35,267 bases of DNA from a virus (taxonomy: Duplodnaviria > Heunggongvirae > Uroviricota > Caudoviricetes): IMG/VR virus record IMGVR_UViG_2737471818_000009; one strand, written 5' to 3'. Under the pieces are notes generated by a model. It did not search any database. It saw nothing but the letters and a program-made list of their open reading frames with translations, and had not been told where the DNA came from. The translations under genes and the position numbers were made by a program. The number at the start of each line of letters is the position of its first letter. Position 1 is the stretch's first letter. This document shows, piece by piece, positions 13,932 through 33,469 of this stretch.

Positions 13932-13957
13932 TTCCTTTTAAAGTCAAGAATAAGAGG

Positions 13958-13989: not shown

Positions 13990-13995
13990 GTAAAA

Positions 13996-14441: not shown

Positions 14442-14446
14442 TGCTG

Positions 14447-14743: not shown

Positions 14744-14746
14744 GGT

Positions 14747-16347: not shown

Positions 16348-16366
16348 GATTTATCTCCTGATTTTG

Positions 16367-17550: not shown

Positions 17551-17559
17551 ACCATTTCC

Positions 17560-18117
17560 TTAATCAATCAGTGCAATGGAGGCGCGCGGTCGGCCCAGCA
17601 GCGCCCGCACCGCCATGGCTGCTTCAGCCAGCAACGTCCGGCGGCTCTCGCTGGCTTCTGTTGATGACTGCGCCTCGCGCCGCCCCACGCTGGCAGATTC
17701 CGGCAAAAGATCGGCCTTTGCGCGTGCATACACAGCCTTGGTGTACAGTGCTGTAATGTGGTTCTGCATCCGTTGAGGTTGTGCATCCGTGTTGCGCGGC
17801 TCTGGTTGCAACACGGTGTAACCCGGAATATCAGTGGCCCGGATGTAGCCCTGTTCCTGCCAGTATTCACGGCGTGCAGCCAGTTCAGTGTTAATCTCTG
17901 TCACCGCGCAAAGCAGCGCCGTCAGCACCGTTTCGTGTGACGTGACGGCGGGGATACTGCGGCTCTTTTCAAAATCACCGGCATCAATATCCGGCCAGAA
18001 TCCATCGTTCTGAATAATGGCCTGCTGATAGTGAATGCTTTTCCCGTCAAACATGCTCACTCCGTGGAAAGGCGGACTGACCGGTTTCCGCAGTGTGCTG
18101 ATGGCTTTTGCCGGCAC
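17560..18117 (-). CDS. L: Head completion/stabilisation protein (P2 gpL-like)
   Basis: Follows the small terminase as in the P2 O-N-M-L operon; contains an FWPDID motif; position 18115..18117 is GTG, first ATG at 18052..18054. Confidence 0.55.
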   Translation of the reverse strand: MPAKAISTLRKPVSPPFHGVSMFDGKSIHYQQAIIQNDGFWPDIDAGDFEKSRSIPAVTSHETVLTALLCAVTEINTELAARREYWQEQGYIRATDIPGYTVLQPEPRNTDAQPQRMQNHITALYTKAVYARAKADLLPESASVGRREAQSSTEASESRRTLLAEAAMAVRALLGRPRASIALID

Positions 18118-18152
18118 ACCTCCACCGCGCCCGCCCGGTTGTTGGGAGTCGT

Positions 18153-18863
18153 TTACGTGCCCTGCAACGCGCGCAGTCTTGCAGCAATGCGCTGGCGCAG
18201 GGTTTTCACCTGAATTTTTGGATGCAGCCAGGCAGCCCGCTCCAGATACTGATCAGCCTGTTGCAGTATCCCCGTATCATTAATTGCACTGGCCAGTGGT
18301 TTGCCGTCATCGCCGCGCAGCAGCTGGACGCCTGCAAAGCGCCAGTAGCGGGCAGCAAGACGTTCATTCACACGCCATTTGTCGCGGATTTTTTCAAACA
18401 CCTGCTGAAAATATGGCGCGATACTGTTCCCGCGTTCAGCTTCGGTTTCTGCCCATTCAAGAATGAAATGGGCCACAAACGTTGGCAGCTCGCTTTTGAA
18501 GTTCTCCGGCGTCTTCTGTCCCTGCTCAATGGCAATGTCAGTCCACCGCAGCGCCAGCTCAAACTGCCCGGTATCGAACAGCCAGATGATGCAGTACACC
18601 AGAATGGGATTCTGATAGACGCGTTCCCCCTCCAGATAAGCCTGTGCGTGTGGCAGCCAGCGGGGCAGCAGCGTGTTCCGCTTGAATTCCAGCTTGTCAG
18701 ACAGCAGCTCCATGTTGTGCAGTTGTCTGATGTCGTTATTCAGTGCCAGCAGCTTAATGTGCTGGCTCTCTGTACTGACGGCGCTCCCGTCCGTTCTGGT
18801 CATGAGTGCTGCACGGCGCTCATCCATCTGTCGGGCACGTTGTCGCTGCATTGGCGTTGGCAT
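18153..18863 (-). CDS. M: Terminase small (endonuclease) subunit, P2 gpM-like
   Basis: 236 aa; position after the major capsid gene in the O-N-M-L operon. Confidence 0.7.
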   Translation of the reverse strand: MPTPMQRQRARQMDERRAALMTRTDGSAVSTESQHIKLLALNNDIRQLHNMELLSDKLEFKRNTLLPRWLPHAQAYLEGERVYQNPILVYCIIWLFDTGQFELALRWTDIAIEQGQKTPENFKSELPTFVAHFILEWAETEAERGNSIAPYFQQVFEKIRDKWRVNERLAARYWRFAGVQLLRGDDGKPLASAINDTGILQQADQYLERAAWLHPKIQVKTLRQRIAARLRALQGT

Positions 18864-18880
18864 ACCGCGCGCTCCGTTTA

Positions 18881-19894
18881 TCAGGCGATGGTTACCGCAG
18901 ACTCATCCACGGCAGCATATAAATCTGGATCGCCCAGGGCGTAACCCTCATAACGCCAGTATGAGTTTTCGAACTGTTTGCGATCGCCCACATCTTCTGC
19001 CTTACGACGGCGGGACCCTTTCAGCGTCAGGATCTGCAGATTTGGCAGCATGGTCACTACCATACGCTTGCCCGGCATAAACGGCGGAATGATGGCCTTG
19101 CGGCCTGCGATGTTCTTCGTCAGCAGCTGTGCGGCCACTTTTTCGGTAGGCTTGTCCTCTTTGTTGTAGAGGCGTAGTTCTTCAGCAGCCACAAGGTCTG
19201 CGCCAACCAGCACGGTAAGGCGAGGATCGTTGTGATACTGCGCCGGGATGTAAGTGCGGATCAGGTCTGAGGCCATAGCGTCAAGACCGACATAATCACC
19301 GCCTTCGCCCAGGGTAACGGCGTCTGTCAGAATACGGGAGGTATTGCCGGGCTGTTCTCCCCACTTTTTGGCGATTTCATGCCAGCCGATGTTGACGTCT
19401 TCGCCGTTCGGGTGACTTTCGGGGTCAGAGTTTTCCGCTACTGTTTTACCGTTAAAGCCAATGCGCAGCATATCCAGCGCAAAGTTGGTGACGGCGGCGG
19501 AGTTCATCAGGTTGAAAAATTCCTGCGGGCTGCCGGCATTCGCCCAGATGGCGAGTTGTTCCCAGGTGATCACGCAGCAGGAATCAGTTTCAACGAGTTT
19601 AAATTCGTTGCCTTTGATGCCCGAACCTTTAGCGAAACGACCGCTTTTCACGCGACCGGTGCGCAGCGTGGATTCGCCCACGGTGACGACCTGCCCTTGC
19701 GGGTGCGGAACGTCCATGCAGGTGGTGAAATTCAGAAATTCCGTGCTTTCCAGCAGGGCTTTACGCAGGGCAATGCTGCGCGGTTCGGTCAGGGAAAAAG
19801 CGCGATCACCTGAGGCAGCGCAGTCACTGAATGTTTTTTGCAGTTCGCTGAGGTACTGATTAACCAGCTTTTGTGCTTCTGGTGTCATGTTCAT
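18881..19894 (-). CDS. N: Major capsid protein, P2 gpN-like
   Basis: 337 aa directly after the scaffold gene; ATG at 19892..19894. Confidence 0.8.
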   Translation of the reverse strand: MNMTPEAQKLVNQYLSELQKTFSDCAASGDRAFSLTEPRSIALRKALLESTEFLNFTTCMDVPHPQGQVVTVGESTLRTGRVKSGRFAKGSGIKGNEFKLVETDSCCVITWEQLAIWANAGSPQEFFNLMNSAAVTNFALDMLRIGFNGKTVAENSDPESHPNGEDVNIGWHEIAKKWGEQPGNTSRILTDAVTLGEGGDYVGLDAMASDLIRTYIPAQYHNDPRLTVLVGADLVAAEELRLYNKEDKPTEKVAAQLLTKNIAGRKAIIPPFMPGKRMVVTMLPNLQILTLKGSRRRKAEDVGDRKQFENSYWRYEGYALGDPDLYAAVDESAVTIA

Positions 19895-19908
19895 TGCGTT
19901 CTCTCCGG

Positions 19909-20799
19909 TTACACCAGGTTAAAAGTTTCGCCACCGGCCGGATTGTTGCCCGGCAGTTTGGTGGCATCCTTGCTGAGTTCAGCAAATGCGGTTTCCATAC
20001 TGGTGACTTTCTCCGCGATGGCGTTCACCGTGGAGAACAGCTTTTCGCCCTGCTCGGTGGTCAGCGTGAAGGTTTTGTCGTCCTTGTTGTTCTGTTCTGC
20101 GTTGTCCTGCCCCTGATCGCCGGTGCTGCCTTCCGGCTTGTTATCACCGGTATCTTTCGGGGCATCCTTCGCGCTGAACTGCGCGACGTTTTCTTCCAGT
20201 TTGCCCAAGCGTTCGCCGGTTTTGTTGATGGCGTCCATCAACTGACCGAACTGTTTTTCGTTCATATCGTTTTCCTGTTTGTTGCGTCCCACGGAGAAAA
20301 GGCCGGAAAAGAAACTGCGTTTGGCCTGCTCGTCGTCAGACTGCAGCGTGAAATTCAGTTCTTCTGCATTCCCCATGTGAATGGAGTCTCCCTGCGAAAA
20401 TTGCAGGCGGGTGGTGTTGATGCTGGCCGGAGTGTCAGTTACAGCGATGCCGGATACAAAGAATTTGCCTGTTCCCAGGTAGTTTTCCTTTACCTCTATG
20501 GAGGTGAAAAGTTTTTGCCCGGCCTCGTTGGCTTCGGTCAGAAAGCGGTTGGGTATCAGGCGGGCTTTCAGTTGCACTTTATCACCGACTTTTTCTGCCT
20601 TCAGTGCATCAACAAGACCATAGTTATTGGTGAAAGCACGCCAGCCGGCGCTGGCATGAAACGGCCAGAGCATGGCGGTGTGTTCGTCCGGGTTATAAAC
20701 CTCGGCGGCATCCGTCAGCCACTTTGGATCAATTTCCCGACCGTCGATGGTGGGGCCTGAAGTGGCTACGACCACCCAGTCTGTTTTCAGTTTCGACAT
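19909..20799 (-). CDS. O: Capsid scaffolding protein, P2 gpO-like
   Basis: 296 aa, acidic Lys/Glu-rich C-terminal half; first gene of the operon divergent from the terminase gene. Confidence 0.75.
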   Translation of the reverse strand: MSKLKTDWVVVATSGPTIDGREIDPKWLTDAAEVYNPDEHTAMLWPFHASAGWRAFTNNYGLVDALKAEKVGDKVQLKARLIPNRFLTEANEAGQKLFTSIEVKENYLGTGKFFVSGIAVTDTPASINTTRLQFSQGDSIHMGNAEELNFTLQSDDEQAKRSFFSGLFSVGRNKQENDMNEKQFGQLMDAINKTGERLGKLEENVAQFSAKDAPKDTGDNKPEGSTGDQGQDNAEQNNKDDKTFTLTTEQGEKLFSTVNAIAEKVTSMETAFAELSKDATKLPGNNPAGGETFNLV

Positions 20800-20993
20800 C
20801 TGAATTAACCCGCTGATAAAAATTAAACTGGCGTTATTTAACGGAGAAATGAAAACGTCGTCATCTGATTAATTTCCGGTACTTTCGGATATGCGTATAT
20901 ATCCGAAAAATACCGAAAAGCGATATTCGTTTTTAAAAAAGCCTTTGCTGAAAATGCATAAATTAAAATTGCATCAGCAGGTGAGGTTTATTT
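20800..20993. promoter_or_regulatory. AT-rich divergent late promoter region between the scaffold and terminase genes
   Basis: 194-bp AT-rich intergenic region; palindrome ttcggatat (20884..20892) / atatccgaa (20899..20907) plus a third CCGAAA copy; no TGT or ACA triplet present, so no canonical P2 TGT-N12-ACA box. Confidence 0.5.
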
Positions 20994-22781
20994 ATGGCGT
21001 ATTCTGATGAGGTGATTGCTACTGCAAAATCGCTCTATCTGAAAAGACACACACCAAAAGAAATACAAAAGAAGCTCGGACTGAACAGCCCGCGAATTGT
21101 TTATTACTGGGCGACAAAGTTTGAGTGGTACACACAGCTTAATACTGAAGGCGTGGAGGATGTTATCGCCCGGCGTCTCGCTGTACTGGCGGAGCGTGAC
21201 CATAAAACCCAGGAAGAACACGATGAACTCGATCGCCTGATTGGCCACCACGTCAAACTGATGTCGGTCAGGAACAAGCACACAGAACGCATGGCTGAGA
21301 TTGCGCGAATGGGAGTGGACATTCCCCAGCCTGGCCGTTATGGAAAAGAAGAACGCGGAGAAAAAGGTGCAGGCAAGAAAGAGCGCCCCCGTAAAGCTAA
21401 TGACGTTACCGGACTGACTGCTGAAAGTTTTGAGCCGTTTACGAAGAAACTGTTTGCTTATCAGTTGCGCCTGCGTGAAAACAAATTCCGCCGTGTACGC
21501 AATCTGCTTAAATCCCGCCAGATTGGGGCGACGTATTACTTCGCGTTTGAGGCGTTTGAAGATGCGGTATTAACCGGCGACACACAGATATTTTTATCGG
21601 CATCAAAACGTCAGGCCGAAGTGTTCCGTACTTATATTGTAAAAATTGCACAAACAGAGTTTGGCATTCCCATTAAAGGCAATCCGGTTAAGTTAAGTAA
21701 TCTGGCTGAACTGTATTTTCTGGCGACCAACAGTAACACAGCGCAGTCAAACAGCGGCCACCTGTATATTGATGAATACCTGTGGATCCCCGGTTTTCGC
21801 CGTCTCAATGAAGTGGCATCAGGGATGGCCACCCATAAACACTGGCGCATTACCTATTTCTCCACGCCGTCATCCAAAACACACCAGGGTTACCCGTTCT
21901 GGTCTGGCGATGAATGGTGCAAAGGCGATCCGAAACGAAAAGGGGTTGAGTTTCCGTCCTTTGATGAGCTGCGCGATGGTGGGCGTGAATGTCCGGATGG
22001 TCAGTGGCGCTATGTGGTTACGCTGGAAGATGCCATTGCCGGCGGCTTTAACCTTGCTGATATCAACGAGCTGCGCGAGCGATACAACGAAACAGCGTTC
22101 AATATGCTGTTTATGTGTGTGTTTGTGGATGACAAAGAGAGCGTCTTTAAATTCGATGATCTTGTGCGTTGTGGTGTTGATGTCAGTACGTGGGAGGATT
22201 TTCACCCGGAAGAGTCTATGCCATTTGGTAACCGTGAGGTGTGGGGCGGCTTTGACCCGGCGCGCTCCGGCGATAACGCCACATTTGTTGTGCTGGCACC
22301 GCCGCTGGTTGCGGCAGAACGATTCCGCGTGCTGGAAAAACACCACTGGCGCAGCATGTCATTCCAGTTTATGGCAGAGCGTATCCGCAGCATTAAGGCG
22401 CGCTATAACATGACGTTTATCGGCATTGACGTCACCGGTCTTGGTTACGGTGTCTTTGAGCTGGTTCAGGGATTTGCCCGCCGTGAAACAGTGGCCATTC
22501 ATTACAGCGTGGAATCCAAAAACCGCCTGGTGATGAAGATGCTGGATCTGATTTACGCCAACCGTATTGAGTGGGATGAGGAAGCCACGGATATTCCGGC
22601 ATCGTTCCTGGCCATTCGTCAGGAGTCTACCAACAGCGGCAATAAAGTCACTTTCACCGCCGAACGTAGCGAAGAAACCGGGCACGCTGACATCTTCTTT
22701 GCCATAGCTCATGCCGCAAGTAATGAACCCCTGAACTATAAGCACAAGCGCAAATCAACATGGATCCTGTCAGATGAGTAA
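20994..22781 (+). CDS. P: Terminase large (ATPase) subunit, P2 gpP-like
   Basis: 595 aa; divergent from O; overlaps the portal gene by 8 nt. Confidence 0.85.
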   Translation: MAYSDEVIATAKSLYLKRHTPKEIQKKLGLNSPRIVYYWATKFEWYTQLNTEGVEDVIARRLAVLAERDHKTQEEHDELDRLIGHHVKLMSVRNKHTERMAEIARMGVDIPQPGRYGKEERGEKGAGKKERPRKANDVTGLTAESFEPFTKKLFAYQLRLRENKFRRVRNLLKSRQIGATYYFAFEAFEDAVLTGDTQIFLSASKRQAEVFRTYIVKIAQTEFGIPIKGNPVKLSNLAELYFLATNSNTAQSNSGHLYIDEYLWIPGFRRLNEVASGMATHKHWRITYFSTPSSKTHQGYPFWSGDEWCKGDPKRKGVEFPSFDELRDGGRECPDGQWRYVVTLEDAIAGGFNLADINELRERYNETAFNMLFMCVFVDDKESVFKFDDLVRCGVDVSTWEDFHPEESMPFGNREVWGGFDPARSGDNATFVVLAPPLVAAERFRVLEKHHWRSMSFQFMAERIRSIKARYNMTFIGIDVTGLGYGVFELVQGFARRETVAIHYSVESKNRLVMKMLDLIYANRIEWDEEATDIPASFLAIRQESTNSGNKVTFTAERSEETGHADIFFAIAHAASNEPLNYKHKRKSTWILSDE

Positions 22782-23808
22782 AAAGAAAAAATACCCCGTG
22801 TTACACGATGGCGTAGCAAAAAAAACAGCCAGCAAAATGACGTTTATTGAATTTGGTGACCCGGAACCGGTCGCTGCATGGGGCTGTTATTACGGCTCGC
22901 TCTGGGATGGTTATAACGGCTGGTACACGCCACCCATTGAGCGCATGGATCTCGCTATGTTGGCCAATATCGCACCGTATCACGGCGCGGTACTGCGTGC
23001 GCGCGTCAATATGATCATGCAGGGTTTTCGTGGGGGTGGTGGTATGACACACGCCGCCATGGCGGCAGCGGTGACCAATCTGCTGATATTCGGGGATATG
23101 GGACTGCTTAAAGTGCGCAATGGCTTCGGGCGGGTGGTGCGCCTGCATACGTTGCCTTCTCTGTACCTGCGGCGTAACAACGAGGGTGGCACGGTGATTG
23201 TGCAGGCGTCACTGGAAGATCTCGTTTACCCGCCAGGCGAAGTGGTGTTCGTGGCCATTTATGACCCGCAACAGCAGGTTTACGGTGTCCCGGATTATAT
23301 TCACGGGATGGAATCTGCCATGCTGAATGTGGATGCCACCCGCTTTCGCCGCAAGTATTACAAGAACGGCGCACATCTGGGTTATATCCTGTATTCCACT
23401 GACCCGGACATGGATCCCGAGCTCGAGGCGGAATTCCGTAAAAAGATAGAGGCGTCAAAAGGGGCGGGCAATTTTAAATCCATGTTTATCAATATACCTG
23501 GCGGAGACAAAGAAGGCGTTAAGGTGATCCCTATCGGGGATTCAGGTACAAAAGATGAGTTCCTGAATATAAAAACCATCAGTGCCCAGGATCAGCTCGT
23601 TGCGCACCGTTTTCCACCCGGACTTGCCGGCATCATCCCCGCAAATACGGCCGGGCTTGGTGATCCGCTGAAATCCCGCGAGGCATATTACAGAGATGAG
23701 GTTATTCCGATGCGCCGTCTGATTATGGAGGGTATCAACAGCGATCCGGATATCAGACGGCTGGGGCAGGTGGAATTTATTCTTGAATTTAACGAATCCA
23801 CGGAGTGA
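22774..23808 (+). CDS. Q: Portal protein, P2 gpQ-like
   Basis: 344 aa, the same length as P2 gpQ; P-then-Q order on one strand as in P2. Confidence 0.85.
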   Translation: MSKKKKYPVLHDGVAKKTASKMTFIEFGDPEPVAAWGCYYGSLWDGYNGWYTPPIERMDLAMLANIAPYHGAVLRARVNMIMQGFRGGGGMTHAAMAAAVTNLLIFGDMGLLKVRNGFGRVVRLHTLPSLYLRRNNEGGTVIVQASLEDLVYPPGEVVFVAIYDPQQQVYGVPDYIHGMESAMLNVDATRFRRKYYKNGAHLGYILYSTDPDMDPELEAEFRKKIEASKGAGNFKSMFINIPGGDKEGVKVIPIGDSGTKDEFLNIKTISAQDQLVAHRFPPGLAGIIPANTAGLGDPLKSREAYYRDEVIPMRRLIMEGINSDPDIRRLGQVEFILEFNESTE

Positions 23809-23809
23809 T

Positions 23810-23835
23810 GTGCGGTATGGGGAAAGAGCGGGTAA
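23810..23835. other. Candidate cos (cohesive end) site
   Basis: cggtatggggaaagagcgg just past the portal stop shares a GGGGAAAG core with the P2/186 cohesive-end sequence as I recall it; P2-family cos lies beside the 3' end of Q. Confidence 0.3.
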
Positions 23836-23873
23836 AATCGGCGGCAGTAAAACGCTGTTCCGGGAGGTGGAAA

Positions 23874-24131
23874 ATGCGCAGACAGAAAGCGCGATGTCAT
23901 TGCTGCGGTGCACATGCAGTGATTGAGAAAACAGCCTGGAAAACCGATCAGTTTGCTGATGTGTATTACCGTTGCACCCGTCTCGAGTGCGGACATACCT
24001 GGGTGATGAATCTGACCTACTCGCACACACTGGTGCCCAGCGGGCTGGATAACGGTGTGTTAAAGCTGTTGATTGAACGGATGCGCCCAGAAGAAAAACA
24101 GATGGCGCTGGAGCTGTTGCAGGCTGGATAG
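23874..24131 (+). CDS. ogr: Late gene transcriptional activator, Ogr/Delta zinc-finger family
   Basis: 85 aa from ATG 23874 (GGAGG RBS); C-x2-C ... C-x4-C arrangement (CHCCGAH ... CTRLECGH); the track ORF 23805..24131 is over-extended upstream. Confidence 0.7.
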   Translation: MRRQKARCHCCGAHAVIEKTAWKTDQFADVYYRCTRLECGHTWVMNLTYSHTLVPSGLDNGVLKLLIERMRPEEKQMALELLQAG

Positions 24132-24153
24132 CTGACGCGCTTCGCTTGTCCAA

Positions 24154-24199
24154 CCCGGAACGGGCACACAAAGAATTTGCGCACCCGTTCCGGGTTTTC
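24154..24199 (+). terminator. Rho-independent terminator shared by the convergent ogr and rrf2-like genes
   Basis: Perfect 11-bp inverted repeat cccggaacggg (24154..24164) / cccgttccggg (24184..24194) followed by ttttc. Confidence 0.6.
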
Positions 24200-24571
24200 T
24201 TATTCAATGGCAGACAACTGATAATTTGTGTCTTCCTGCAGGCTGGTTAAAGAAATATTATCCAGTGCAGCCAGAATAACGTGCTGTGTATATAATCCGG
24301 AACATTTCATTGCCCGAACAACATCACCAACACTGTAATTTTCTTTTGTTGGGATATATCCACCACCCGGGCCGCGTGTGGCTTTTACCAGGCTACTTTC
24401 CCGTAAATATCTGAATATTTGCTCCAGATATGACAGTGAAACGGTTTCTTTGCTTAATTGCCGGAGCGAGATTGGCTTTCCGGTGTACTGTTTCACAAAT
24501 TTAATCATTACCATAACTGCAACTGATGCACGCTGGCTTCCGGAATTATCTTTCATCATGATTACTTCCAT
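24200..24571 (-). CDS. Rrf2-family winged-helix transcriptional regulator (no Cys cluster ligands)
   Basis: ISLSYLEQIFRYLRESSLVKATRGPGGGYIPTK matches the Rrf2/IscR recognition helix-wing signature; only one Cys downstream; ATG 24569..24571 overlaps the upstream stop by 1 nt. Confidence 0.65.
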   Translation of the reverse strand: MEVIMMKDNSGSQRASVAVMVMIKFVKQYTGKPISLRQLSKETVSLSYLEQIFRYLRESSLVKATRGPGGGYIPTKENYSVGDVVRAMKCSGLYTQHVILAALDNISLTSLQEDTNYQLSAIE

Positions 24572-24876
24572 TAATGGCATAAATTGATGGAGCGGGTCAG
24601 TGAATAAAGAGGCAATACATTCCATCCCTTAGAGCGCCAGCTGTCTGCAACATCTTTACTTCTTGTTATCGCCGGTATTCCAATAGGATTATTTGCGTGC
24701 ATCCATGCCACTGGCTCTGCTTCCAGTGATGCAAGTGCGATTTCCAGTGCGATTAACATATTGTGATCGTCTTCATCAAGACCGAACGGGATGTCTTCGC
24801 GCCACGATTTAAACTCTGTGATTTTACGTTGTAACCATTCTTTGGTAATGGTGGACATAGTTACTCCTGTTTTCAC
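24571..24876 (-). CDS. Hypothetical small protein (95-101 aa) coupled between parR and the Rrf2 gene
   Basis: Position 24874..24876 is GTG overlapping the parR stop; first ATG at 24856..24858; no recognisable motif. Confidence 0.4.
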   Translation of the reverse strand: MKTGVTMSTITKEWLQRKITEFKSWREDIPFGLDEDDHNMLIALEIALASLEAEPVAWMHANNPIGIPAITRSKDVADSWRSKGWNVLPLYSLTRSINLCH

Positions 24877-25187
24877 TTCGGGAAAAACGCCTGAATATTC
24901 TTTTTCACCTGCTGCATATGGGGGGCGCTGTCTGCTGCTGGTTGCGCCGGTTTTTCAGGCTGTACTGGTAGCGGTGGCATCCGTATTTCGTCTTCTGACC
25001 ATTCTGCCAGCGAATACGCCAACGCGGGGGTGCGTTTTATAAGAGCCAGTCCGGCCAGAAAAGCCGCGCGTTGTGCGCGGCTGCGTTCGGAGGCTGGCAG
25101 GCTGTCGAGGTAACTGCACGCCTCCCGTTCGCTCTTGACGACGGTGGGCTTCAGATAGAAACTTATCCGTCTGGTTGGTGTCGTCAT
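24873..25187 (-). CDS. parR: ParR-like centromere-binding protein (type II partition adaptor)
   Basis: 104 aa from ATG 25185..25187 (AGGAG RBS); RRISFYLKP...YLDSLPASERSRAQRAAFLAGLAL parallels plasmid R1 ParR (RRTIAFKLNP...TLDSIPQGERSRLNRAALTAGLAL, recalled); 5 nt after the parM stop. Confidence 0.7.
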   Translation of the reverse strand: MTTPTRRISFYLKPTVVKSEREACSYLDSLPASERSRAQRAAFLAGLALIKRTPALAYSLAEWSEDEIRMPPLPVQPEKPAQPAADSAPHMQQVKKNIQAFFPK

Positions 25188-25191
25188 TGAT

Positions 25192-26151
25192 TTACTCCTG
25201 GTCCATTGCGTACAGCCCATTAACCAGAGCAAACTGTGGCACCCCGTCCGCGATGAAAGTCGCATTAACTCCGCAGGCTTCGCAGATAGCGGGTGCCACA
25301 ATCTCCGCTCCTCCACCTACAACCATCACCCGCCCGTAACCCGAAAAACCCGCCAGCGCGCGGATCACGCGTTGTTTCAGTGTTTCTTCCTTTTCACGAA
25401 TAACTGCCATCAGGCTGGCGTAATGCGCGTCATTGTGGATGTGCTGGCGCAGCCAGGCTTCATCGTGGCGATGTTCGATAATGGTATTGGCGATGTGGTG
25501 ACTGGTGCGCATACCGTTGGTGGCCATCACCGACAGCACGGCATCGGCCATCAGAGAAACGCCTACGTGTGGATCGCAAAACACCTGGCTGATACCTGCC
25601 AGCTGCCCCTGAACCTTTGCCACATCCAGCGTGGTTCCGCCCAAATCCACAATCAGCAGGGATTCAAACGGACTCATGTCGGCCAGTGCTTTAAAGCCAG
25701 CCGGAATGGATTCAGGCATAACCCGCACGTTACGGATAGTGAATGCTTCGCCGTTCTGGTACTCCACCGGGCGCATAACGTTCGCTTTTTTGCGGTTGAT
25801 GTTGGCCATGTCCGGCTGTGCGTTTGTGTCGAAATACTCGCTCAGTGGCAGGGTGACAACCACATCCACCTCCTGTGGCGTGATGCCTGATTTGACCAGC
25901 GCGTGATGAATGGCAATGACATTCACATCGCTGTACTGGTATTGCGTGTCGGTCGTCTGGACAAAGCGATCGCTGACCGGATCAAAACCATAGCGCACAC
26001 CATCAAGCATGTAGTTCGCGGGCTGCGTGCCACCGAACGGCGCAGACCATTCCGACTTGAAGCTGTTCGGGCTGATGGCGTTGCGGCGTTCGCCGTTCTC
26101 AGTCCATGCCAGCTTGATGTTGGTGGAGCCGTCGTCGATACAAATTTTCAT
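25192..26151 (-). CDS. parM: ParM/StbA-like actin-fold partition ATPase
   Basis: 319 aa with IDDGSTNIKL, ISPNSFK, YSDVNVIAIHHAL, RKKANVMRPVE, MPESIPAG, DLGGTTLD and GGGAE motifs, collinear with plasmid R1 ParM. Confidence 0.85.
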   Translation of the reverse strand: MKICIDDGSTNIKLAWTENGERRNAISPNSFKSEWSAPFGGTQPANYMLDGVRYGFDPVSDRFVQTTDTQYQYSDVNVIAIHHALVKSGITPQEVDVVVTLPLSEYFDTNAQPDMANINRKKANVMRPVEYQNGEAFTIRNVRVMPESIPAGFKALADMSPFESLLIVDLGGTTLDVAKVQGQLAGISQVFCDPHVGVSLMADAVLSVMATNGMRTSHHIANTIIEHRHDEAWLRQHIHNDAHYASLMAVIREKEETLKQRVIRALAGFSGYGRVMVVGGGAEIVAPAICEACGVNATFIADGVPQFALVNGLYAMDQE

Positions 26152-26180
26152 GTCGCTTTTCCTTATGTTGATTAATTAAT

Positions 26181-26288
26181 CGTTTACGGGATTTTTAAAT
26201 CCCGTTTTTGCCTGTTTTATGCGCGCTTCATATATCGCGGCGCGTTTTTTGCTCATTTACGGGATTTGTGAATCCCGTTTCTGTCTGT
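26181..26288. repeat. Two ~38-bp direct repeats with 20-bp palindromic cores upstream of parM (parC-like centromere/operator candidate)
   Basis: ACGGGATTTTTAAATCCCGT at 26186..26205 and ACGGGATTTGTGAATCCCGT at 26259..26278, each in a tttacggg...cccgttt..ctgtttt context; the second copy lies in the last codons of gene A. Confidence 0.45.
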
Positions 26289-29053
26289 TTTTTGTTTCCA
26301 CTTGTCAGGCCACCCCGCAGCAGGTCTGCTTTGCGGCGGGCGCGTTCAGTGGTTTCACTGATTCTCTGTGCATGCTCTGCGTCGCGGATGGCGCGCAGCA
26401 TGTCAGAAAGCACGGTAACGGGGGTTTTCATGGTGTTCTGGTCCTGCTGAAGTGTGGATGCCAGACGTGCGGCGGCTTCGGGGTCTGATGCCCCCAGCTG
26501 TTCCAGATAGCTGGCGGCCGGGTTATGGCGGATCTCCGTGCTGCTTACGCCGTGATTACGGCTCAGGCGCTGCCAGAGCTGCGTGATTCGGCTGTCCGGG
26601 CGGGTATCCGGTTTGCGTACAATTTCAAATCCCTGCGGTGCAATGATGCTGCCGTCAACGTACAGACTGCCGCCCCGTAACAGGTGCTGCATCTGCTGTT
26701 CACCAATATGCAGGCCGAGAGATTCAGCAGACTCCCGCCATTCTTTAGCGAGTAATTCGTGGTTATCAGGCAAAGGCCGCTGCTGTTTGCGGCTCTGTGT
26801 CCAGCTTTGCATTTCATCACTGCTGTTTTTTGCCTGTTTGTCACGAAGCGAACGCATCAGCGCCCGGCGTTCGTGCCGTTTCAGTGAGCGCATCCATTCA
26901 TTCACTTCAACGCCGTCAGGAATCTGCGGCCACGGTGCTGGCCGTTCTTCCGGCTGTTCTGTCCCGTTGTTGCCTGTTTCCTGTACACGGGGACAGTTAT
27001 TGCCACGAGTCCAAGGGGCGGCAGGGCCGCCCTGAAGGTCAAAACCATTTTCGCGGGTGCTGTCTTCCGCTTCCGGTTTACGTCTTACCAGCTTCCAGTT
27101 ATCCGGATGCGTGCACACACGGGAGGATTCCCCGATGAGTGGTGACCAGATCCCGTAAATCTGTACACTCTGCTCGCCGTAATCGTTCAGCTCATCTGCG
27201 AGGTCGTAGGCGGTACGAATCAGGTAGTCTTTGCGTGGAACAAGTACGCCGCCCTGTTTCTCTATGTAGGTGGCAAAACATCCGGCATCGGCGGCAGCGA
27301 GTACCGCATCCATTGCGTCATTTTCCAGACGTTGCGGTCCCTGTGGGTTACGTGCCATCTGACAGGCAAGGCGGCGCAGTTCACGCCACACCTGACGGGA
27401 GGGGATGCCAAAGAACTGGAACTGGCGGACCCGGTGAAGGCGCGCCCAGCCGATGGCGCGTTCCACGCTTTCTGCCATCGTCTTTCCTGATTCGTCGTCG
27501 ATGCGCGGTTTGCCTGTTTTCGGGTCAATGCCATCCACGGCGCGGCTGTCCAGGTTCTTTCCGATGTAGGTGGCGATGTAGCTGGTCGGCGTACCTTTCG
27601 AACCGTCGACGTACTCTGCCTTAAAGCGCGGAGTTATGTCATTGCCCAGCTCGTGGCGGTCTTCGCGAATGGCAATATCACGGGTGATGTCCACGATGCT
27701 GTCGATTTCTTCAGGATGTGCAAAGACCATCATGTGCCAGTGCACGGTGCCGTCATGGTGAGGCTCCACCGTGCGAATGCCATACCAGCGCAGGCCGTCG
27801 CGGTTCAGTTTTTTGCGGACCGCCTTAAAAAACGTGTTAACCAGGTAATCGCTGGAATCGCGCATGGTGGCCCCGTTCCATTTGGGATTCGGATTACCGT
27901 TCTCTGTTGTGGCGTGGTATTTTGACGGGCAGGTGACAGTCAGAAACACCGCTCTGTCGCCACGGGCTTCGGCCAGAAGTTCCAGCCCCTTCATGGTGGC
28001 CATCATTTCTGCCTTACGGTGAACCGGGTTACTTACTCCCGCGTAATACACTGTCTCGAGATCAATCGTGAACCCGTCTTCGTTTTCCAGCATGAAACTT
28101 TTCAGGTAATCGCGTGTTTTCTCGCGCTGTGCGCGAAACTCGCTTAACGCGTCCTGGCTCAGATAAGGCGATGTTTTTCTGGAAACCAGACAGGCGGCGC
28201 GGAGTTGTTCTTCTCTCCACTCGCAACGTAACAGCCACAGTTTGCGTTTCCACCAGTCCGCACAGGTCAGGCGAAGGATTGCGCCCGGCAGCAGTTCCGT
28301 ATCCGGTTCGCTCTTGTTCAGGGCTTCGTAATGTGGCGGCATGATGTGCAGGCGTAATGCGATACGAGCCAGCATCCGGTAAGCCTTCAACATTACATCC
28401 ATGGTCAGCTCGCCATCTCTGGCACCAAAGCCATCGCAGAGTGTTTCGAAGGTGCTGCTGAACATCGCCGCGGTCATGGTGGCCAGCGTCTGTATCTGGT
28501 GCTTGTTGAGCTGCGGCAGGTAAAGCAAATCGTCCAGGCGTTCGCGCCCGGCAAGGGAGCGATAACCCGGTGTCAGCCAGCGATGATCGGTGCGGTCCAG
28601 ACGTTCGAATATTTTGCGCAGGGTCCCACGCGCATAGCGTTCTGCCTGCCTGGCGTTTTTTCCTTTCTGACGATCGGCTTCCTGTTTTTTGCGCAGGAAG
28701 GAGAGGTGGCGGCTCAGTGGTTCACGCAGATAAACAGGTAGTGCCTTTAGTGTGGCAAAGGCACGGGCTACTGGGTCTTGTTCTGTTGCCCGGCGCTTAC
28801 TGATGATGCTCTGTGCCAGCTTTTCACGCTGTCCGGCTTCCTCAAGGGATGCCATGAGTTTTTTACCCATGGCGGATTGTGCGAAAAAGGCTTCTTCCTT
28901 CGCTTCCTGTTCTTCCCGTGCCCTTTTGTCTGCCTCAAGGTAGTAACGGATGGCGCGTTGCAGGTCGGTTTCAGTTTCCTGCCTGCGCTCCGTAAATCTG
29001 GCCGGATCAATGGCTGGCCGTGGTTCATTCCAGCTCCATGCAAACTCGCTCAT
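26228..29053 (-). CDS. A: Replication initiation protein A (HUH rolling-circle endonuclease, P2/186 gpA family)
   Basis: 941 aa from ATG 29051..29053 (ATGA overlap with the upstream ORF; alternative start 29080); HUH motif TVHWHMMVF and paired-tyrosine motif YIATY. Confidence 0.85.
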   Translation of the reverse strand: MSEFAWSWNEPRPAIDPARFTERRQETETDLQRAIRYYLEADKRAREEQEAKEEAFFAQSAMGKKLMASLEEAGQREKLAQSIISKRRATEQDPVARAFATLKALPVYLREPLSRHLSFLRKKQEADRQKGKNARQAERYARGTLRKIFERLDRTDHRWLTPGYRSLAGRERLDDLLYLPQLNKHQIQTLATMTAAMFSSTFETLCDGFGARDGELTMDVMLKAYRMLARIALRLHIMPPHYEALNKSEPDTELLPGAILRLTCADWWKRKLWLLRCEWREEQLRAACLVSRKTSPYLSQDALSEFRAQREKTRDYLKSFMLENEDGFTIDLETVYYAGVSNPVHRKAEMMATMKGLELLAEARGDRAVFLTVTCPSKYHATTENGNPNPKWNGATMRDSSDYLVNTFFKAVRKKLNRDGLRWYGIRTVEPHHDGTVHWHMMVFAHPEEIDSIVDITRDIAIREDRHELGNDITPRFKAEYVDGSKGTPTSYIATYIGKNLDSRAVDGIDPKTGKPRIDDESGKTMAESVERAIGWARLHRVRQFQFFGIPSRQVWRELRRLACQMARNPQGPQRLENDAMDAVLAAADAGCFATYIEKQGGVLVPRKDYLIRTAYDLADELNDYGEQSVQIYGIWSPLIGESSRVCTHPDNWKLVRRKPEAEDSTRENGFDLQGGPAAPWTRGNNCPRVQETGNNGTEQPEERPAPWPQIPDGVEVNEWMRSLKRHERRALMRSLRDKQAKNSSDEMQSWTQSRKQQRPLPDNHELLAKEWRESAESLGLHIGEQQMQHLLRGGSLYVDGSIIAPQGFEIVRKPDTRPDSRITQLWQRLSRNHGVSSTEIRHNPAASYLEQLGASDPEAAARLASTLQQDQNTMKTPVTVLSDMLRAIRDAEHAQRISETTERARRKADLLRGGLTSGNKKQTETGFTNPVNEQKTRRDI

Positions 29054-29439
29054 GGCTGGTATCCCGTCACGCGCTGCCACTCCTGCGAGAAGATGGCGGA
29101 AAGGCGGTTAAATTCAGCGGTGTATTCACTCAGCGAGGCACACCCGCCAGCAGTGCGATGCGCCAGCATTGCCGCGAATACGGAGGCCGGGGAGTCGTAA
29201 TACGCCAGCAGTGATTCGCCGTGTGGTGTCAGGCAGTGCAACGCCAGCCCGTGTGGTGTGAAGTCCACGCGGTAGCAGTCGTCTACTGTGAAATAAAGGG
29301 TGTCCGCATTCTCCGGTTTTGTAGTGCGTGCTCTGTTGTCACGACCACGGATGTAAAGATCAAATAATCCCTGAAGAACGGGAGCCAGACGGGTGTCCTG
29401 TGTGCGCACCCATCTTGTGAAGTCATGAGCGTCAATCAT
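29050..29439 (-). CDS. Hypothetical early protein, 129 aa
   Basis: ATG 29437..29439; stop overlaps the A start; no recognisable motif. Confidence 0.4.
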   Translation of the reverse strand: MIDAHDFTRWVRTQDTRLAPVLQGLFDLYIRGRDNRARTTKPENADTLYFTVDDCYRVDFTPHGLALHCLTPHGESLLAYYDSPASVFAAMLAHRTAGGCASLSEYTAEFNRLSAIFSQEWQRVTGYQP

Positions 29440-29511
29440 GCTGCAATTCTCTTTACTACAGATGTGCGAAGGCCTCCCGCCGCAAGGTGCAGGAAAGGCC
29501 CGGAACAGGAA

Positions 29512-29742
29512 TTAATGGAGTTTGTTTTGCTGCTGGATGAGCTGCTGAAGCTCGCGCAGATCATCCGCCAGATAGCTGAAAACAGCGGATGAATAGAGGT
29601 TTGAAAGTTCGCAGCTACGCTCATGCAGCATATTGATGTGCATGATTTTAGCGACGCGGAATGCGCGGGAAAGTCTGCGGTTGATTTCAGTCTGGATGTG
29701 ACGACGCTCCGCGATAGCGCGGTGCTGTTTGCGGTTTGCCAT
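29512..29742 (-). CDS. Hypothetical early protein, 76 aa, basic
   Basis: ATG 29740..29742; first ORF downstream of a 370-bp structured noncoding region. Confidence 0.35.
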   Translation of the reverse strand: MANRKQHRAIAERRHIQTEINRRLSRAFRVAKIMHINMLHERSCELSNLYSSAVFSYLADDLRELQQLIQQQNKLH

Positions 29743-29921
29743 GGTGTGGCCTCGTGTATAGTAAGTTTTGAAAACTCACCATCCAGAGGTGGAAAACTCG
29801 GGGTGGTGAGACGTACAGGGTTTCCACAACCGGCTATACACGAACCCGGCCCGACCGAAGTCGGCCCCATACGCCCCACCATAATTCTGACGCGAAAAAG
29901 ACGTGGCGATACGGTACGCAC

Positions 29922-29942
29922 AAAAAAACCGCTGGCGCGGTT
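29922..29942 (-). terminator. Rho-independent terminator candidate in the early region
   Basis: plus-strand aaaaaaa then accgc tggc gcggt; on the minus strand the hairpin is followed by a run of T. Confidence 0.35.
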
Positions 29943-30109
29943 GTGCGCGTGTATAGTCAGCGGGGTGGAAATCCCGGCACCCGTTTTATGAGGTGCAGCG
30001 GAAATGTAACCTGACTGATTGCGGCATGGCAAGCGGTTTTTTTGTGAGAACGGCATACTAAAAAATCCTGATGCTGCTCCGGCCAGCGGTTTCCACTGGC
30101 CGGGTTTAA

Positions 30110-30940
30110 TTACTTCACCGGAACAAACGGAACAGCGGTATTACTGGTCATGTATTGCGGCAGCGTGCCGTTCCATTTGTTGATAGCTTCCAGCTCCATA
30201 ACGCCGGGGTTCTGGCGCAGAGCTTCACCGCGCAAACGAATGGCGTCGGCTTCAGCCTGGGCTTTTGTGCGAATGGCATCAGCCTGTCCGGCTGCTTCTG
30301 CGCGTAGCATGTTGGCTTCTGCTTCGCGCTGCTTGACTTCCTGTTCGCGTTGCAGAGTTTTCTGGTTTGCCGTGACTTTGGCATTAATGCTGTCGATAAC
30401 GGTTGGTGGGTATTCCGGTTTACCGACATAAGAGAGGCTCATTACCTGAATGCCGATAGGTGTCATTTCTGCCTGAATGTCTTTAAGTGCTGAATCCAGC
30501 AGTTCAGACTTGCCGCCGTCGATAAATTTATCGGTGGTCATTTTGCTGGCCAGTCGGTTGAGTGCGTCGGCGATCTTCTGGCGCAGGTCAGTGTCGGTAA
30601 TGTCATCCACGCCTTTGCGGTAGGTCTGAAACACTGTAGTAACTTTGGATGGATCAACCTTGTAGGCCACACCGATGTGATAGCCGATGGTTGTGCCGTC
30701 ACTCATCTGAAAGCTGAACGGCTCATCGTAGGTCTTCATTTGTTTGAAGGTTGGGAAGATGTAAACCTCTGTATTCCAGCCTGTCCAGTAGCGGCCAACG
30801 CCAACTACTTCGCCGACGCCTTTGTCGTCGCCCAGCTTGTTGACTTTGATGCCCACATTACCTGGCTCAACGCGATCGCAACCAACCAGCAGGATGGCGG
30901 CAAAAAGCGGGAGAATCTGAAAGAGTTTGAATTTCTTCAT
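30110..30940 (-). CDS. SPFH/band-7 (stomatin/prohibitin-like) lipoprotein
   Basis: 276 aa; signal peptide with lipobox LLVGC; SPFH-like core; C-terminal Ala/Glu/Gln-rich coiled-coil (QREQEVKQREAEANMLRAEAAGQADAIRTKAQAEADAIRLR). Confidence 0.75.
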   Translation of the reverse strand: MKKFKLFQILPLFAAILLVGCDRVEPGNVGIKVNKLGDDKGVGEVVGVGRYWTGWNTEVYIFPTFKQMKTYDEPFSFQMSDGTTIGYHIGVAYKVDPSKVTTVFQTYRKGVDDITDTDLRQKIADALNRLASKMTTDKFIDGGKSELLDSALKDIQAEMTPIGIQVMSLSYVGKPEYPPTVIDSINAKVTANQKTLQREQEVKQREAEANMLRAEAAGQADAIRTKAQAEADAIRLRGEALRQNPGVMELEAINKWNGTLPQYMTSNTAVPFVPVK

Positions 30941-31140
30941 TGTTTGATTTCCTTGATGTACTTACTGAAAAGGCGAACAACGCCTGCCGGGTACAGCATG
31001 GCAATGAAAATGCCCAGCAATACCAGGAAGGAGCTGTCTGATGAAATCATTCGGGGGAGTAGTCCTGCATACAGAATGAGAGAGACGAGGACGCATACCA
31101 GCGCCCACATGTATGCGCGAAACCAGGTCTTTTTGTTCAT
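30937..31140 (-). CDS. Small membrane protein (two TM segments) coupled to the SPFH gene
   Basis: 67 aa, two hydrophobic helices; its stop overlaps the SPFH start (ATGA). Confidence 0.5.
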   Translation of the reverse strand: MNKKTWFRAYMWALVCVLVSLILYAGLLPRMISSDSSFLVLLGIFIAMLYPAGVVRLFSKYIKEIKQ

Positions 31141-31151
31141 ATCGCGGTCCT

Positions 31152-31451
31152 TTACTGGTTAAGGAAAAAATCGAAAACGTTGTCGATGCGTTGCAGCAGC
31201 TCCTGCTGCATTGCTTCCGGCGTTTCTGATTCACCTGGTGACTCCAGCGTCGCGCAAAAATCCTTGATTTCATGATGGAGCGTCAGACGAATGGCAGGAG
31301 CCGTGGTTCTGGCGTGCTCCAGCTCATCCAACAGTGCCAGCACAGCAGACGGCGAGAGCATTGCGCGAAACGCCAGTAATTTTTGATGCGTTGCCATTCG
31401 TTGCAGGGCAAATGCCAGTTCGCGTAGCTTCTGGTGGTTGATGGTGCTCAT
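31152..31451 (-). CDS. Hypothetical early protein, 99 aa
   Basis: ATG 31449..31451; helical, no recognisable motif. Confidence 0.35.
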   Translation of the reverse strand: MSTINHQKLRELAFALQRMATHQKLLAFRAMLSPSAVLALLDELEHARTTAPAIRLTLHHEIKDFCATLESPGESETPEAMQQELLQRIDNVFDFFLNQ

Positions 31452-31537
31452 GCTCTGGCTTCCTTCAGTAGCTGGTTAAACATGTGAGTAAGTGGATTGC
31501 TACACCCGAACGGCATCGGGTTTACGTGGTAAGAAGC

Positions 31538-31714
31538 CTAGCCTCCTGTTTTGCGAGCGCGACCACCTGTGCTGCGGTTTGTTCTGATGACTAAGCCGCC
31601 GCGCCAAAGTCGGCGTAACTCAGCATTAATGGCTGTGGTTGGGGTATTCAGTGCTGCGGCGATTTCTCCACCGCTACACCCCGGATTGGCGGCGATATAG
31701 TCCAGAATGGTCAT
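31538..31714 (-). CDS. Hypothetical small protein (58 aa), possibly DNA-binding
   Basis: ATG 31712..31714 with AGGAG RBS; basic C-terminal tail; the track ORF start at 31774 is probably over-extended. Confidence 0.3.
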   Translation of the reverse strand: MTILDYIAANPGCSGGEIAAALNTPTTAINAELRRLWRGGLVIRTNRSTGGRARKTGG

Positions 31715-31739
31715 CTTCGTGGCTCCTGTACCCTGATCG

Positions 31740-31940
31740 TTAGTTGCCTGCTTTTTTGCGCAGAACCTGTACATACATCACGTTAGTAGCCGTGTAATGC
31801 TTCCCGTTCTTAAGCCAGATGTGATGAATACCGGGCTCGCTGCGGGAGGGGGCTGTTCTGTCGTGATCGATCAGGCTGTCTTCCACGTCGTATTCAATGC
31901 CGCCCGATGTGAAATGTACGGTTAAGAATGATTTGATCAT
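31740..31940 (-). CDS. Hypothetical early protein, 66 aa
   Basis: ATG 31938..31940 with AGGAG RBS 7 nt upstream. Confidence 0.3.
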   Translation of the reverse strand: MIKSFLTVHFTSGGIEYDVEDSLIDHDRTAPSRSEPGIHHIWLKNGKHYTATNVMYVQVLRKKAGN

Positions 31941-31968
31941 CGCTGTGCTCCTTTGGTTTTTCATGGGG

Positions 31969-32382
31969 TTATGCGTTAAATGGGGAAGAGGTTGCTATGT
32001 CGATGAACGCAATCCGGTCGCGTCTGATGATGTGTACATCACTCAGCGGTTCGCTCTCATTTGCCGGAACCGCAGCAATCATGTAGCTCCCCTGCAGGTC
32101 TGCCAGGATGATGTATTCCTGTTGTGGGTTGTTGATGATAAAGACCCGTTTCCCAATGCTGGGGGAAGAAGTGTTGGTGCCGGCTAATTGAGCTTTGAGA
32201 GTGCTGATTTCGTTGTTCAGGCTTTCAATAAGTCCAGCAGCACTTGCGGTGACTTCTGCTATAGCCATTGAACGAACATAAAAGGGAATAAGCCCTTCTC
32301 TCAGTGCCTGCCTGGCTAATGCATCTTCCATTTCTGATATTTTTTTCAGTTTGGTGATGGTGACTGTATCTTTAGCGTTCAT
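31969..32382 (-). CDS. Hypothetical early protein, 137 aa
   Basis: ATG 32380..32382; no recognisable motif. Confidence 0.35.
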   Translation of the reverse strand: MNAKDTVTITKLKKISEMEDALARQALREGLIPFYVRSMAIAEVTASAAGLIESLNNEISTLKAQLAGTNTSSPSIGKRVFIINNPQQEYIILADLQGSYMIAAVPANESEPLSDVHIIRRDRIAFIDIATSSPFNA

Positions 32383-32474
32383 TTTGTATCCTCGTTATTT
32401 GTGTGTGCGAATACCTCCGCGAGTGCGGATTGTTTTCACGTTTTCTTGTTTAATGTGGTGTTTTATTTGTGCTG

Positions 32475-32588
32475 TTATTCGTCAGAGAAAAAACGCTCAA
32501 TCTTTTTCACTGAATGAATAATTCGCATAATCCCAATAGCGCAGGCCACCGAAATAATCAGAACAAGCCATGAGATAAATATGCTCAT
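32475..32588 (-). CDS. Small hydrophobic peptide (37 aa, single TM), not in the ORF track
   Basis: Hand translation MSIFISWLVLIISVACAIGIMRIIHSVKKIERFFSDE; its ATG overlaps the stop of the upstream 80-aa ORF (ATGA). Confidence 0.35.
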   Translation of the reverse strand: MSIFISWLVLIISVACAIGIMRIIHSVKKIERFFSDE

Positions 32589-32827
32589 GCGATATTCCCC
32601 AGGTTATACGGTTCAATGTGGTCCCCGTTTTCTGCGGCGCAGACGAGTATGGAAAGCTCGTCGAGCGCGTCCGGATCGTCAATGTAAAAAGCCGTGTCGT
32701 ATATACTCTTGATGGCCCTGGTCAATGACTCTTGAGCTGCGCGTTCAGCATGAGTGCCTGATGCGCTTAAGCGAAAATGAAAGCGCTCAAGTGCTTTATT
32801 GACGAGAGTTTTATATTCTTTATCCAT
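32585..32827 (-). CDS. Hypothetical early protein, 80 aa
   Basis: ATG 32825..32827; acidic. Confidence 0.3.
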   Translation of the reverse strand: MDKEYKTLVNKALERFHFRLSASGTHAERAAQESLTRAIKSIYDTAFYIDDPDALDELSILVCAAENGDHIEPYNLGNIA

Positions 32828-32838
32828 CGCAACGCCCT

Positions 32839-33117
32839 TTAATCTGCCTTCTGGATTTCTGCTTCTGAATCCATGCAGATAATTTCGATATATGGTTCAT
32901 CGCCATTAACCTGACGTGCTTTTTCAGCTTCGCTAATAATTTCGCGTACGGTCTGGTACGGAAGTTCCACAAACAATCGCGTGCCGTTCAGATAAAGGTA
33001 AGTAGCCACATCTTTTGCTGCCGGGACTACAGCATCAATAGCCGATGCGCGTAATAACAGTTCACCGCGAAAATCAATAAAACGGATAAATACACCTTGT
33101 GCATGCTCTTTGGTCAT
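32839..33117 (-). CDS. Hypothetical early protein, about 93 aa
   Basis: ATG 33115..33117 chosen to avoid a 50-bp overlap with the upstream gene; the track gives 33177. Confidence 0.3.
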   Translation of the reverse strand: MTKEHAQGVFIRFIDFRGELLLRASAIDAVVPAAKDVATYLYLNGTRLFVELPYQTVREIISEAEKARQVNGDEPYIEIICMDSEAEIQKAD

Positions 33118-33127
33118 AAAGCACCTG

Positions 33128-33469
33128 TTATAAATCAGCCTGTTTAATAAAACTTTGCCCGCGAAGCAGACGATCAACCGTGCGTAGTGCTTCGTATAAT
33201 GTGAAATCCTGCCCGAACTGATTGTCGCCGCAGCTCAATGCAAAAATGCGGTTTCCGGTAAACGGATTGCGTGGGCATTTGTGAACCACGATTCCAGCTT
33301 TCTCAATCAGCCAGGCATGCTCGCCGATTTGTTTTACAGCGTGGCCATCCGGTGTTGCGTGTGTTTCGCTCAGGCTGTAGCGAGAGCTGCTGCGTGATGC
33401 ACTGGTGGCGAAACGGTTAGCGTGGCGTTCAGCCCCATTACGAAAGCGTGAATTACGTTGCTGTTTCAT
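33128..33469 (-). CDS. Hypothetical early protein, 113 aa, first gene after cox
   Basis: ATG 33467..33469; basic N-terminus; no recognisable motif. Confidence 0.35.
   Translation of the reverse strand: MKQQRNSRFRNGAERHANRFATSASRSSSRYSLSETHATPDGHAVKQIGEHAWLIEKAGIVVHKCPRNPFTGNRIFALSCGDNQFGQDFTLYEALRTVDRLLRGQSFIKQADL

Follow-up and report, generated by a model that had tools for sequence, protein, structure and literature searches.

A ParMRC-like cassette downstream of gene A

We examined a 35,267-nucleotide stretch of viral DNA (IMG/VR record IMGVR_UViG_2737471818_000009, Caudoviricetes; hereafter "the window," meaning the whole stretch), in which the rolling-circle replication gene of a P2-like prophage, gene A, is followed by a two-gene cassette of plasmid type. 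The first gene, parM, encodes an actin-like ATPase, and the second, parR, a putative centromere-binding adaptor. Two palindromic repeats lie upstream of parM, one in the short spacer behind gene A and one inside gene A itself (Table 1). Judged from their sequences, these parts would make up a complete and selectively maintained type II (ParMRC-like) DNA-segregation module.

The presence of such a cassette is no discovery. The label ParM or partition protein is given in the GenBank records of phages P88, phiSM, and others, in Escherichia coli genomes processed by the Prokaryotic Genome Annotation Pipeline (PGAP), and in PHROGs, which has families for both proteins, and the cassette has been in print since 2022. 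In a survey of the gpA-gpQ hotspot of P2-like prophages, Rousset et al. (2022) reported a "putative plasmid partitioning system" carried by ~1/4 of P2-like phages and proposed plasmid-like maintenance, in nearly the same words as an earlier note made from the letters of this window alone (hereafter the original prediction). Magaziner et al. (2019) had placed the gene of phiSM among "fitness" factors without a test. The cassette and its main interpretive idea are already known; what we newly document is a phage-specific ParM lineage, purifying selection on it, and a two-site, centromere-like layout upstream.

Table 1. Features of the cassette and its surroundings, in window coordinates
Feature	Position	Strand	Description and basis
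parM	25192..26151	-	319-aa actin-like segregation ATPase; Pfam, R1 ParM alignment, phrog_691 "partition protein"
parR	24873..25187	-	104-aa centromere-binding adaptor (by homology); PF10784, phrog_2515
Proximal parC-like repeat	26180..26221	.	Palindromic core ACGGGATTTTTAAATCCCGT, 26186-26205; begins 52 nt upstream of the parM ATG
Distal parC-like repeat	26253..26294	.	Core ACGGGATTTGTGAATCCCGT, 26259-26278; within the last codons of gene A
Gene A	26228..29080	-	gpA rolling-circle replication endonuclease; PF05840, 8e-130
orf95	24571..24858	-	14 nt after parR; matches only PHROGs lacking an assigned function
Rrf2-family transcriptional regulator	24200..24559	-	PF02082, 3.7e-13; PGAP "RrF2 family"; last of the same-strand run
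Hok/Gef-family type I toxin	401..541	-	phrog_251 MokW-like, 1.8e-23; PGAP "Hok/Gef family protein"; near the left prophage end

In profile searches, the ATPase strongly matched StbA_N (1.8e-82) and the ParM C-terminal domain (1.6e-67), and its residues 2-316 aligned end to end with ParM of plasmid R1 (PDB 1mwk; E 3.8e-92). The phosphate-1, phosphate-2, and adenosine motifs were intact, and DDGSTNIK, DLGGTTLD, GGGAE, and MPESIPAG were all kept relative to the R1 protein. The ATG of parR lies 4 nt past the parM TAA. Residues 6-70 of its product matched PF10784 (Plasmid_stab_B; 9.2e-24), and the protein matched phrog_2515 at 5.9e-44 and, weakly, the pB171 ParR structure (2jd3). These searches bore out the original prediction, which had named the two proteins as a ParM collinear with that of R1 and an adjacent ParR, and its sizes and coordinates for both genes held.

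ParR combines an N-terminus of ribbon-helix-helix type with a linker that varies and a C-terminal tail that is conserved. All phage ParRs kept the N-terminal RRISFYLKP strand and the tail motif xNaxxLFPx, which reads KKNIQAFFPK in the window. Both ends of the phage proteins also aligned with those of ParRs from plasmids and integrative and conjugative elements (ICEs), with R1 ParR included in the alignment. A review on partition describes the conserved ParR tail as binding a hydrophobic pocket of ParM. The pair supplies both proteins that mark a type II (ParMRC) system, a ParM ATPase and an adjacent ParR adaptor. Moreover, the ratio of non-synonymous to synonymous substitution rates (dN/dS) for parM was only 0.01-0.07 between the E. 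coli, E. albertii, and Citrobacter copies. The gene is under strong purifying selection, acting on the whole ATPase.

Prophage context and mosaicism

The chromosome of E. coli FHI_NMBU_10 carries, between pheL and raiA, an integrated prophage 99.9% identical to the window. The genes of this prophage run in the order int, repressor, early genes, A, parM, parR, orf95, and rrf2, followed by ogr, portal, and terminase, then by the capsid and tail genes, and further on by hok, com, and a methyltransferase. This order places the cassette in the gpA-gpQ region, the location of tin and old in P2. The position seen, between gpA and portal, agrees with the earlier placement of the cassette in the cargo region of an integrase-bearing P2-like prophage.

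Phage P88 and its relatives phiSM, P884B11, 520873, and Chuche (Xuanwuvirus, Peduoviridae) carry the same locus after the replication endonuclease, with the same two upstream sites. The P88-type phages are 95-96% identical to the window in DNA from mid-parR to gene A and 98-99% identical in ParM. Over the longer span from mid-parR through the early region (window 25036..33450), DNA identity to P88 and other Xuanwuvirus phages is ~93-96%. By contrast, the morphogenesis side (window 1..25035) is unlike P88, which has another morphogenesis module (portal 30% and terminase 40% amino acid identity) and, after parR, cargo other than orf95 and the Rrf2 gene. The window portal and terminase are instead closer to those of a Plesiomonas prophage (75% identity) and of an E. 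albertii prophage (97-99%). Since ParM is 99% identical to the P88 protein but the ParR allele only 52%, one mosaic junction falls inside parR, and the window as a whole is a mosaic. Only 37 of the 5426 E. coli genomes combined orf95 with the window-type parR allele, and this cargo is specific to the phage type.

The slot behind gene A varied among relatives. In one (L003, 3114..4050), parM is truncated to 54 amino acids and followed by a Phd/Doc toxin-antitoxin pair. In another (L004, 407..3777), an AAA ATPase and an S8 peptidase follow gene A, and neither parMR nor the repeats are present. In still others, HicAB or a KAP NTPase comes behind parR. This company, in a known hotspot, raises the alternative that the cassette is competition or defense cargo, acting on related phages or ParMRC plasmids that enter the cell, whether by centromere incompatibility or by ParR repression. 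The occurrence of two ParR alleles with one ParM could likewise mean diversifying specificity. However, where parMR is present, it is always the element nearest gene A, an arrangement long conserved across genera, and the purifying selection described above extends over the whole ATPase. Rousset et al. (2022) filed the cassette under "other functions." We therefore consider a defense role highly unlikely. A known defense system was also rejected as a candidate: the location is that of such systems, but PADLOC returned no match for ParM, ParR, orf95, or the Rrf2-family protein. In its distribution, parMR behaves like a semi-core accessory more than like fast-turnover defense cargo.

Paired upstream sites as a candidate centromere

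The repeats upstream of parM form a direct pair of 42 nt, 86% identical, at a spacing of 73 bp and with 20-bp palindromic cores. Both were recovered where the original prediction had put them, including the second in the last codons of gene A. The palindrome pattern occurs at only these 2 places in the window, where chance would give 0.01. Across the Escherichia, Plesiomonas, and Hafnia phages, two GGG-N10-CCC sites, 72-73 bp apart, were held in common while the remaining sequence had diverged, and the proximal site lay 52-59 nt before the parM ATG. Shuffling each locus 200000 times produced such a pair 9 times at most, and in the 1.24 Mb of fetched loci, it was present at these positions only. 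In relatives with gene A but without parMR, similarity stops at about window 26328, and both sites are absent. Both repeats therefore belong to the cassette and travel with it. Within E. coli, diversity was too low to relate the sequence of the sites to the ParR allele, and there is also physical linkage between the sites and parR.

The layout recalls the parA locus of plasmid R1, which has the same order (parC-parM-parR) and a ParR of the same Pfam family with a similar C-terminal tail. In R1, parC is split in two (partition review), and the phage repeats are likewise divided into two blocks upstream of parM. Unlike in R1, however, no recognizable promoter was found between the phage blocks in our scan. 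The replicons differ as well, as R1 is a low-copy theta plasmid, whereas the phage integrates and replicates by rolling circle and its ParMs form a separate clade.

Could the palindromes instead be intrinsic terminators on the + strand, shielding gene A from antisense transcription of the cargo region? In the window, both sites scored as a hairpin plus T-run on that strand, and each folded at ~-10 kcal/mol with z of ~-2.7. However, the Plesiomonas and Hafnia phages keep GGG-N10-CCC and the 72-73 bp spacing, while their hairpins are weak, with 10-nt loops, z of -0.3 to -2.4, and no T-run. One would not expect a terminator to be duplicated at a fixed helical phase, and both sites are missing wherever parMR is missing. 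Because the geometry in these relatives has outlasted both hairpin and T-run, we favor protein-binding sites and regard the terminator explanation as extremely improbable; as the conserved role of the palindromes, termination is rejected.

A further element lies between the proximal site and parM. A ATTAATCAA box, ~20-30 nt upstream of the parM ATG (window 26160..26180, - strand; Plesiomonas L005 5968..5980; L006 5972..5984), is kept in the Escherichia, Plesiomonas, and Hafnia phages though the flanking sequence has diverged. In the window, it sits within a perfect 12-bp palindrome, GATTAATTAATC. The box could be a -10-like element or a further binding site.

A ParM lineage of P2-like phages

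In phage and plasmid collections, matches to the window ParM fell either at ≥95% identity, all of them P88-like prophage copies, or below 60%. A wider protein search filled this gap with prophage ParMs at 54-63%. We examined the locus context of 45 loci. Every ParM at least 54% identical to that of the window was encoded directly behind gpA in a P2-like prophage, in six host genera: Escherichia, Citrobacter, Plesiomonas, Hafnia, Serratia, and Enterobacter. By contrast, the loci at or below 52% identity had no gpA, portal, or terminase nearby; examples were an ICE of Dickeya and an integrated Rep3 plasmid in Mangrovibacter.

In a neighbor-joining tree, the phage ParMs formed one clade apart from the plasmid ParMs (bootstrap 131/200). 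Among the top 5000 PLSDB records matched by tblastn, and setting aside six prophage copies at ≥95%, plasmid ParMs were at most ~52% identical. A recent import from a known plasmid was rejected as an origin, since no plasmid ParM in this set exceeds ~52% identity and the phage proteins form their own clade.

Separately, six database proteins joined ParM to other domains, namely ParR, tail protein I, a macro domain, or GPO (P0005, P0007, P0009, P0011, P0012, and P0014). These are probably frameshift or assembly artifacts, as most are singletons from short contigs.

Chromosomal and extrachromosomal copies

The cassette is common in E. coli. Counting genomes with parM plus the 3' end of gene A at ≥80% coverage, we found it in at least 1266 of 5426 complete genomes, or about one-quarter. 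Carriers included O157:H7, O104:H4, O26, and ST131 strains. These genomes held it at 1619 places on chromosomes vs 2 on plasmids. In PLSDB, six records reached ≥95% identity, and all six were prophage copies, five of them on replicons of 0.2-1.4 Mb. The Serratia, Enterobacter, and Hafnia relatives were on large or host-flanked contigs.

The sixth PLSDB record, pZ1323PEC0009-2 (L002, NZ_CP148288.1), is a 34,461-bp circle that comprises a complete P88-like phage, int and parMR included, and begins beside the predicted attP. This record speaks for the reading that the phage is a facultative plasmid prophage, in which ParMRC would keep it as a low-copy plasmid over many generations in place of integration. 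So does the plasmid-type character of the module. A StbA-type homolog 47.5% identical to the window ParM is encoded by D6, a P1-like plasmid prophage, and a Plesiomonas relative was found on a phage-sized 32-kb contig ending beside int. Rousset et al. (2022) also put this reading forward.

Still, several findings speak against it. The count of chromosomal against plasmid places is heavily one-sided, and the remaining PLSDB matches are on replicons far larger than a free phage circle. The circular phage is itself 99.9% identical to a chromosomal prophage in the sister strain Z1323HEC0067, and the record could represent an excised, induced form. D6 is an obligate plasmid prophage, and its ParM lies outside the gpA-linked phage clade, in the range of ≤52% identity, where all the examined loci were plasmid- or ICE-borne. 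Phage-plasmids are extrachromosomal in their lysogens; the copies here are overwhelmingly chromosomal, with the single circle of 34.5 kb as the exception. They also replicate in plasmid fashion without reliance on an integrase, and the present phages instead carry a tyrosine integrase (seen in the window-type prophage, in pZ1323PEC0009-2, and in Plesiomonas L005) and the gpA rolling-circle initiator, which was present in every gpA-linked locus. No plasmid-type (theta) Rep protein was annotated in the two full-length annotated copies. A facultative plasmid life therefore seems decidedly doubtful to us. The original prediction had raised an episomal phase; it stands as a legitimate hypothesis, shared with Rousset et al. 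(2022), but as a stable state, an episome is poorly supported.

Proposed role of the cassette

Only 76 nt separate gene A from parM, and in a scan for promoters and terminators, this interval showed no terminator-like site on the sense strand. The same scan found no consensus sigma-70 promoter for parM, and inspection of the spacer by eye gave weak candidates only. This close linkage to the replication gene, the fact that nearly all of the prophages are integrated, and the precedent described below together argue for action on a transient circle. We propose, with about an even chance of being right, that the cassette serves to segregate a transient extrachromosomal phage circle rather than to maintain a permanent plasmid.

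On homology and the conserved layout, ParR dimers would bind the two GGG-N10-CCC sites, which lie ~seven helical turns (73 bp) apart upstream of parM. From homology with R1 ParR and ParM, the C-terminal tail of ParR (xNaxxLFPx) would then capture growing ParM-ATP filaments. Given ~52% identity to plasmid ParMs and intact nucleotide-binding motifs, these filaments could push paired circular phage genomes apart. The module would act on the extrachromosomal, gpA-replicated circle, either in the interval between infection and integration or once the prophage has excised. In these phases, its benefit would be that both daughter cells inherit the element, which should yield more lysogens and less prophage loss.

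The best functional precedent, and the closest analog, is SrpMRC of the SXT/R391 ICEs, whose centromere consists of four 13-bp repeats. Its expression occurs only alongside that of the excision functions, and it stabilizes only the transient excised form of the element (Carraro et al. 2015, PMC4489591). Like the phage cassette, it is a type II module with few short repeats on an element that is normally integrated. However, SrpM belongs to a distant ParM branch, SrpR has no recognizable ParR domain, the carrier is an ICE and not a phage, and its function has been demonstrated (PMC4489591).

A second precedent suggests a different output. In the AlpAC/alpS system of the Corynebacterium glutamicum prophage CGP3, which is likewise integrated, an actin-like ATPase (AlpC), a DNA-binding adaptor (AlpA), and their sites act on viral DNA after induction and are reported to be needed for its efficient replication (PMC4446434, PMC5539076). 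The phage ParM filaments might similarly position or move replicating circles for replication or packaging during the lytic cycle, with no part in inheritance, and the location directly after the replication gene would fit co-expression with replication. AlpAC differs in belonging to another actin-like family and an actinobacterial host, and its reported role is in DNA transport and replication efficiency instead of partition. By contrast, the phage ParM is close (~52%) to plasmid ParMs such as that of R1. R1 ParM is a bipolar pusher, and its known output is to separate paired copies. The phages also tolerate loss of the cassette, as in the relatives with a truncated parM or with other cargo after gene A. 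A lytic-cycle organizer is possible but unlikely in our estimation.

Several points weigh against our proposal that the cassette segregates a transient circle. The timing of parMR expression is something we infer, and a weak promoter may overlap the proximal site. P2-type lytic replication produces many copies per cell, for which random segregation would suffice. The two palindromes offer only four half-sites. R1 parC has ten iterons, that is, five 11-bp direct iterons on each side, where the phage has one 20-bp palindrome per side; with so many fewer ParR sites, the phage palindromes could serve merely as an operator. The Serratia and Enterobacter subclade has another repeat layout, which matches a separate branch in the ParM tree, and the proposal does not account for the conserved ATTAATCAA box. 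The bootstrap value for the phage clade is only moderate. Finally, we found no experimental study of the P2-like phage parMR cassette in the literature.

We also put forward a broader and more speculative version, which we think possible but unlikely: a ParMRC lineage of their own, captured long ago and equipped with a minimal centromere of two sites, might give P2-like phages an actively segregated, plasmid-like carrier phase, before integration or after reversible excision. If so, about one-quarter of E. coli strains would hold a prophage that switches between chromosomal and episomal inheritance. If the cassette works as proposed, then integrating temperate phages, beyond ICEs and phage-plasmids, would use active cytoskeletal segregation to secure their inheritance while off the chromosome, and the line between prophage and plasmid would be blurred. 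The two-site centromere would then also be an unusually small natural parC, useful for studies of ParR-ParM coupling. Because roughly 1 in 4 E. coli genomes carry it, the biology of the cassette bears on prophage stability and spread in pathogens.

Neighboring genes and other observations

No Pfam or NCBIfam match was obtained for orf95, and the match of the Rrf2-family protein to TIGR00738 (1.6e-14) was under the cutoff of that model. The scan showed no terminator-like site between parR, orf95, and the Rrf2 gene on their strand. In the 99.9% identical genome, PGAP starts gene A at the equivalent of window 29050.

The original prediction had noted a hok-like toxin at the left flank, and a Hok-family protein is indeed encoded there, with a match to NCBIfam HokA (6e-9) that is under the cutoff. 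This gene is outside the cassette. The further suggestion that hok and parMR repeat the pairing of stability modules seen in R1 did not hold up as well. The two lie 24 kb apart, and hok homologs occur in phage 500465-2 and in many Shiga toxin (Stx) phages that are absent from the ParM tblastn matches, so the pairing looks incidental.

A few other features of the window were recorded. A search with the P2 cos sequence, allowing ≤3 mismatches, gave no match in the window. At the left end, positions 1..330 encode a Com regulator, and by coordinate mapping, the first letters of the window fall within com. The gene for the Ogr/Delta late activator (window 23805..24131, + strand) lies directly after portal, on the same strand as terminase and portal, and is placed likewise in the Plesiomonas and Hafnia relatives; in P2, ogr is near att. 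In the tail-fiber region, which resembles the tail-fiber genes of phiP27 and Rac, PGAP annotated a pseudogene fragment of a shikimate transporter at window ~5393..6382 (L051 34383..35372 of the 99.9% identical genome), and this fragment adjoins a truncated tail-fiber gene.

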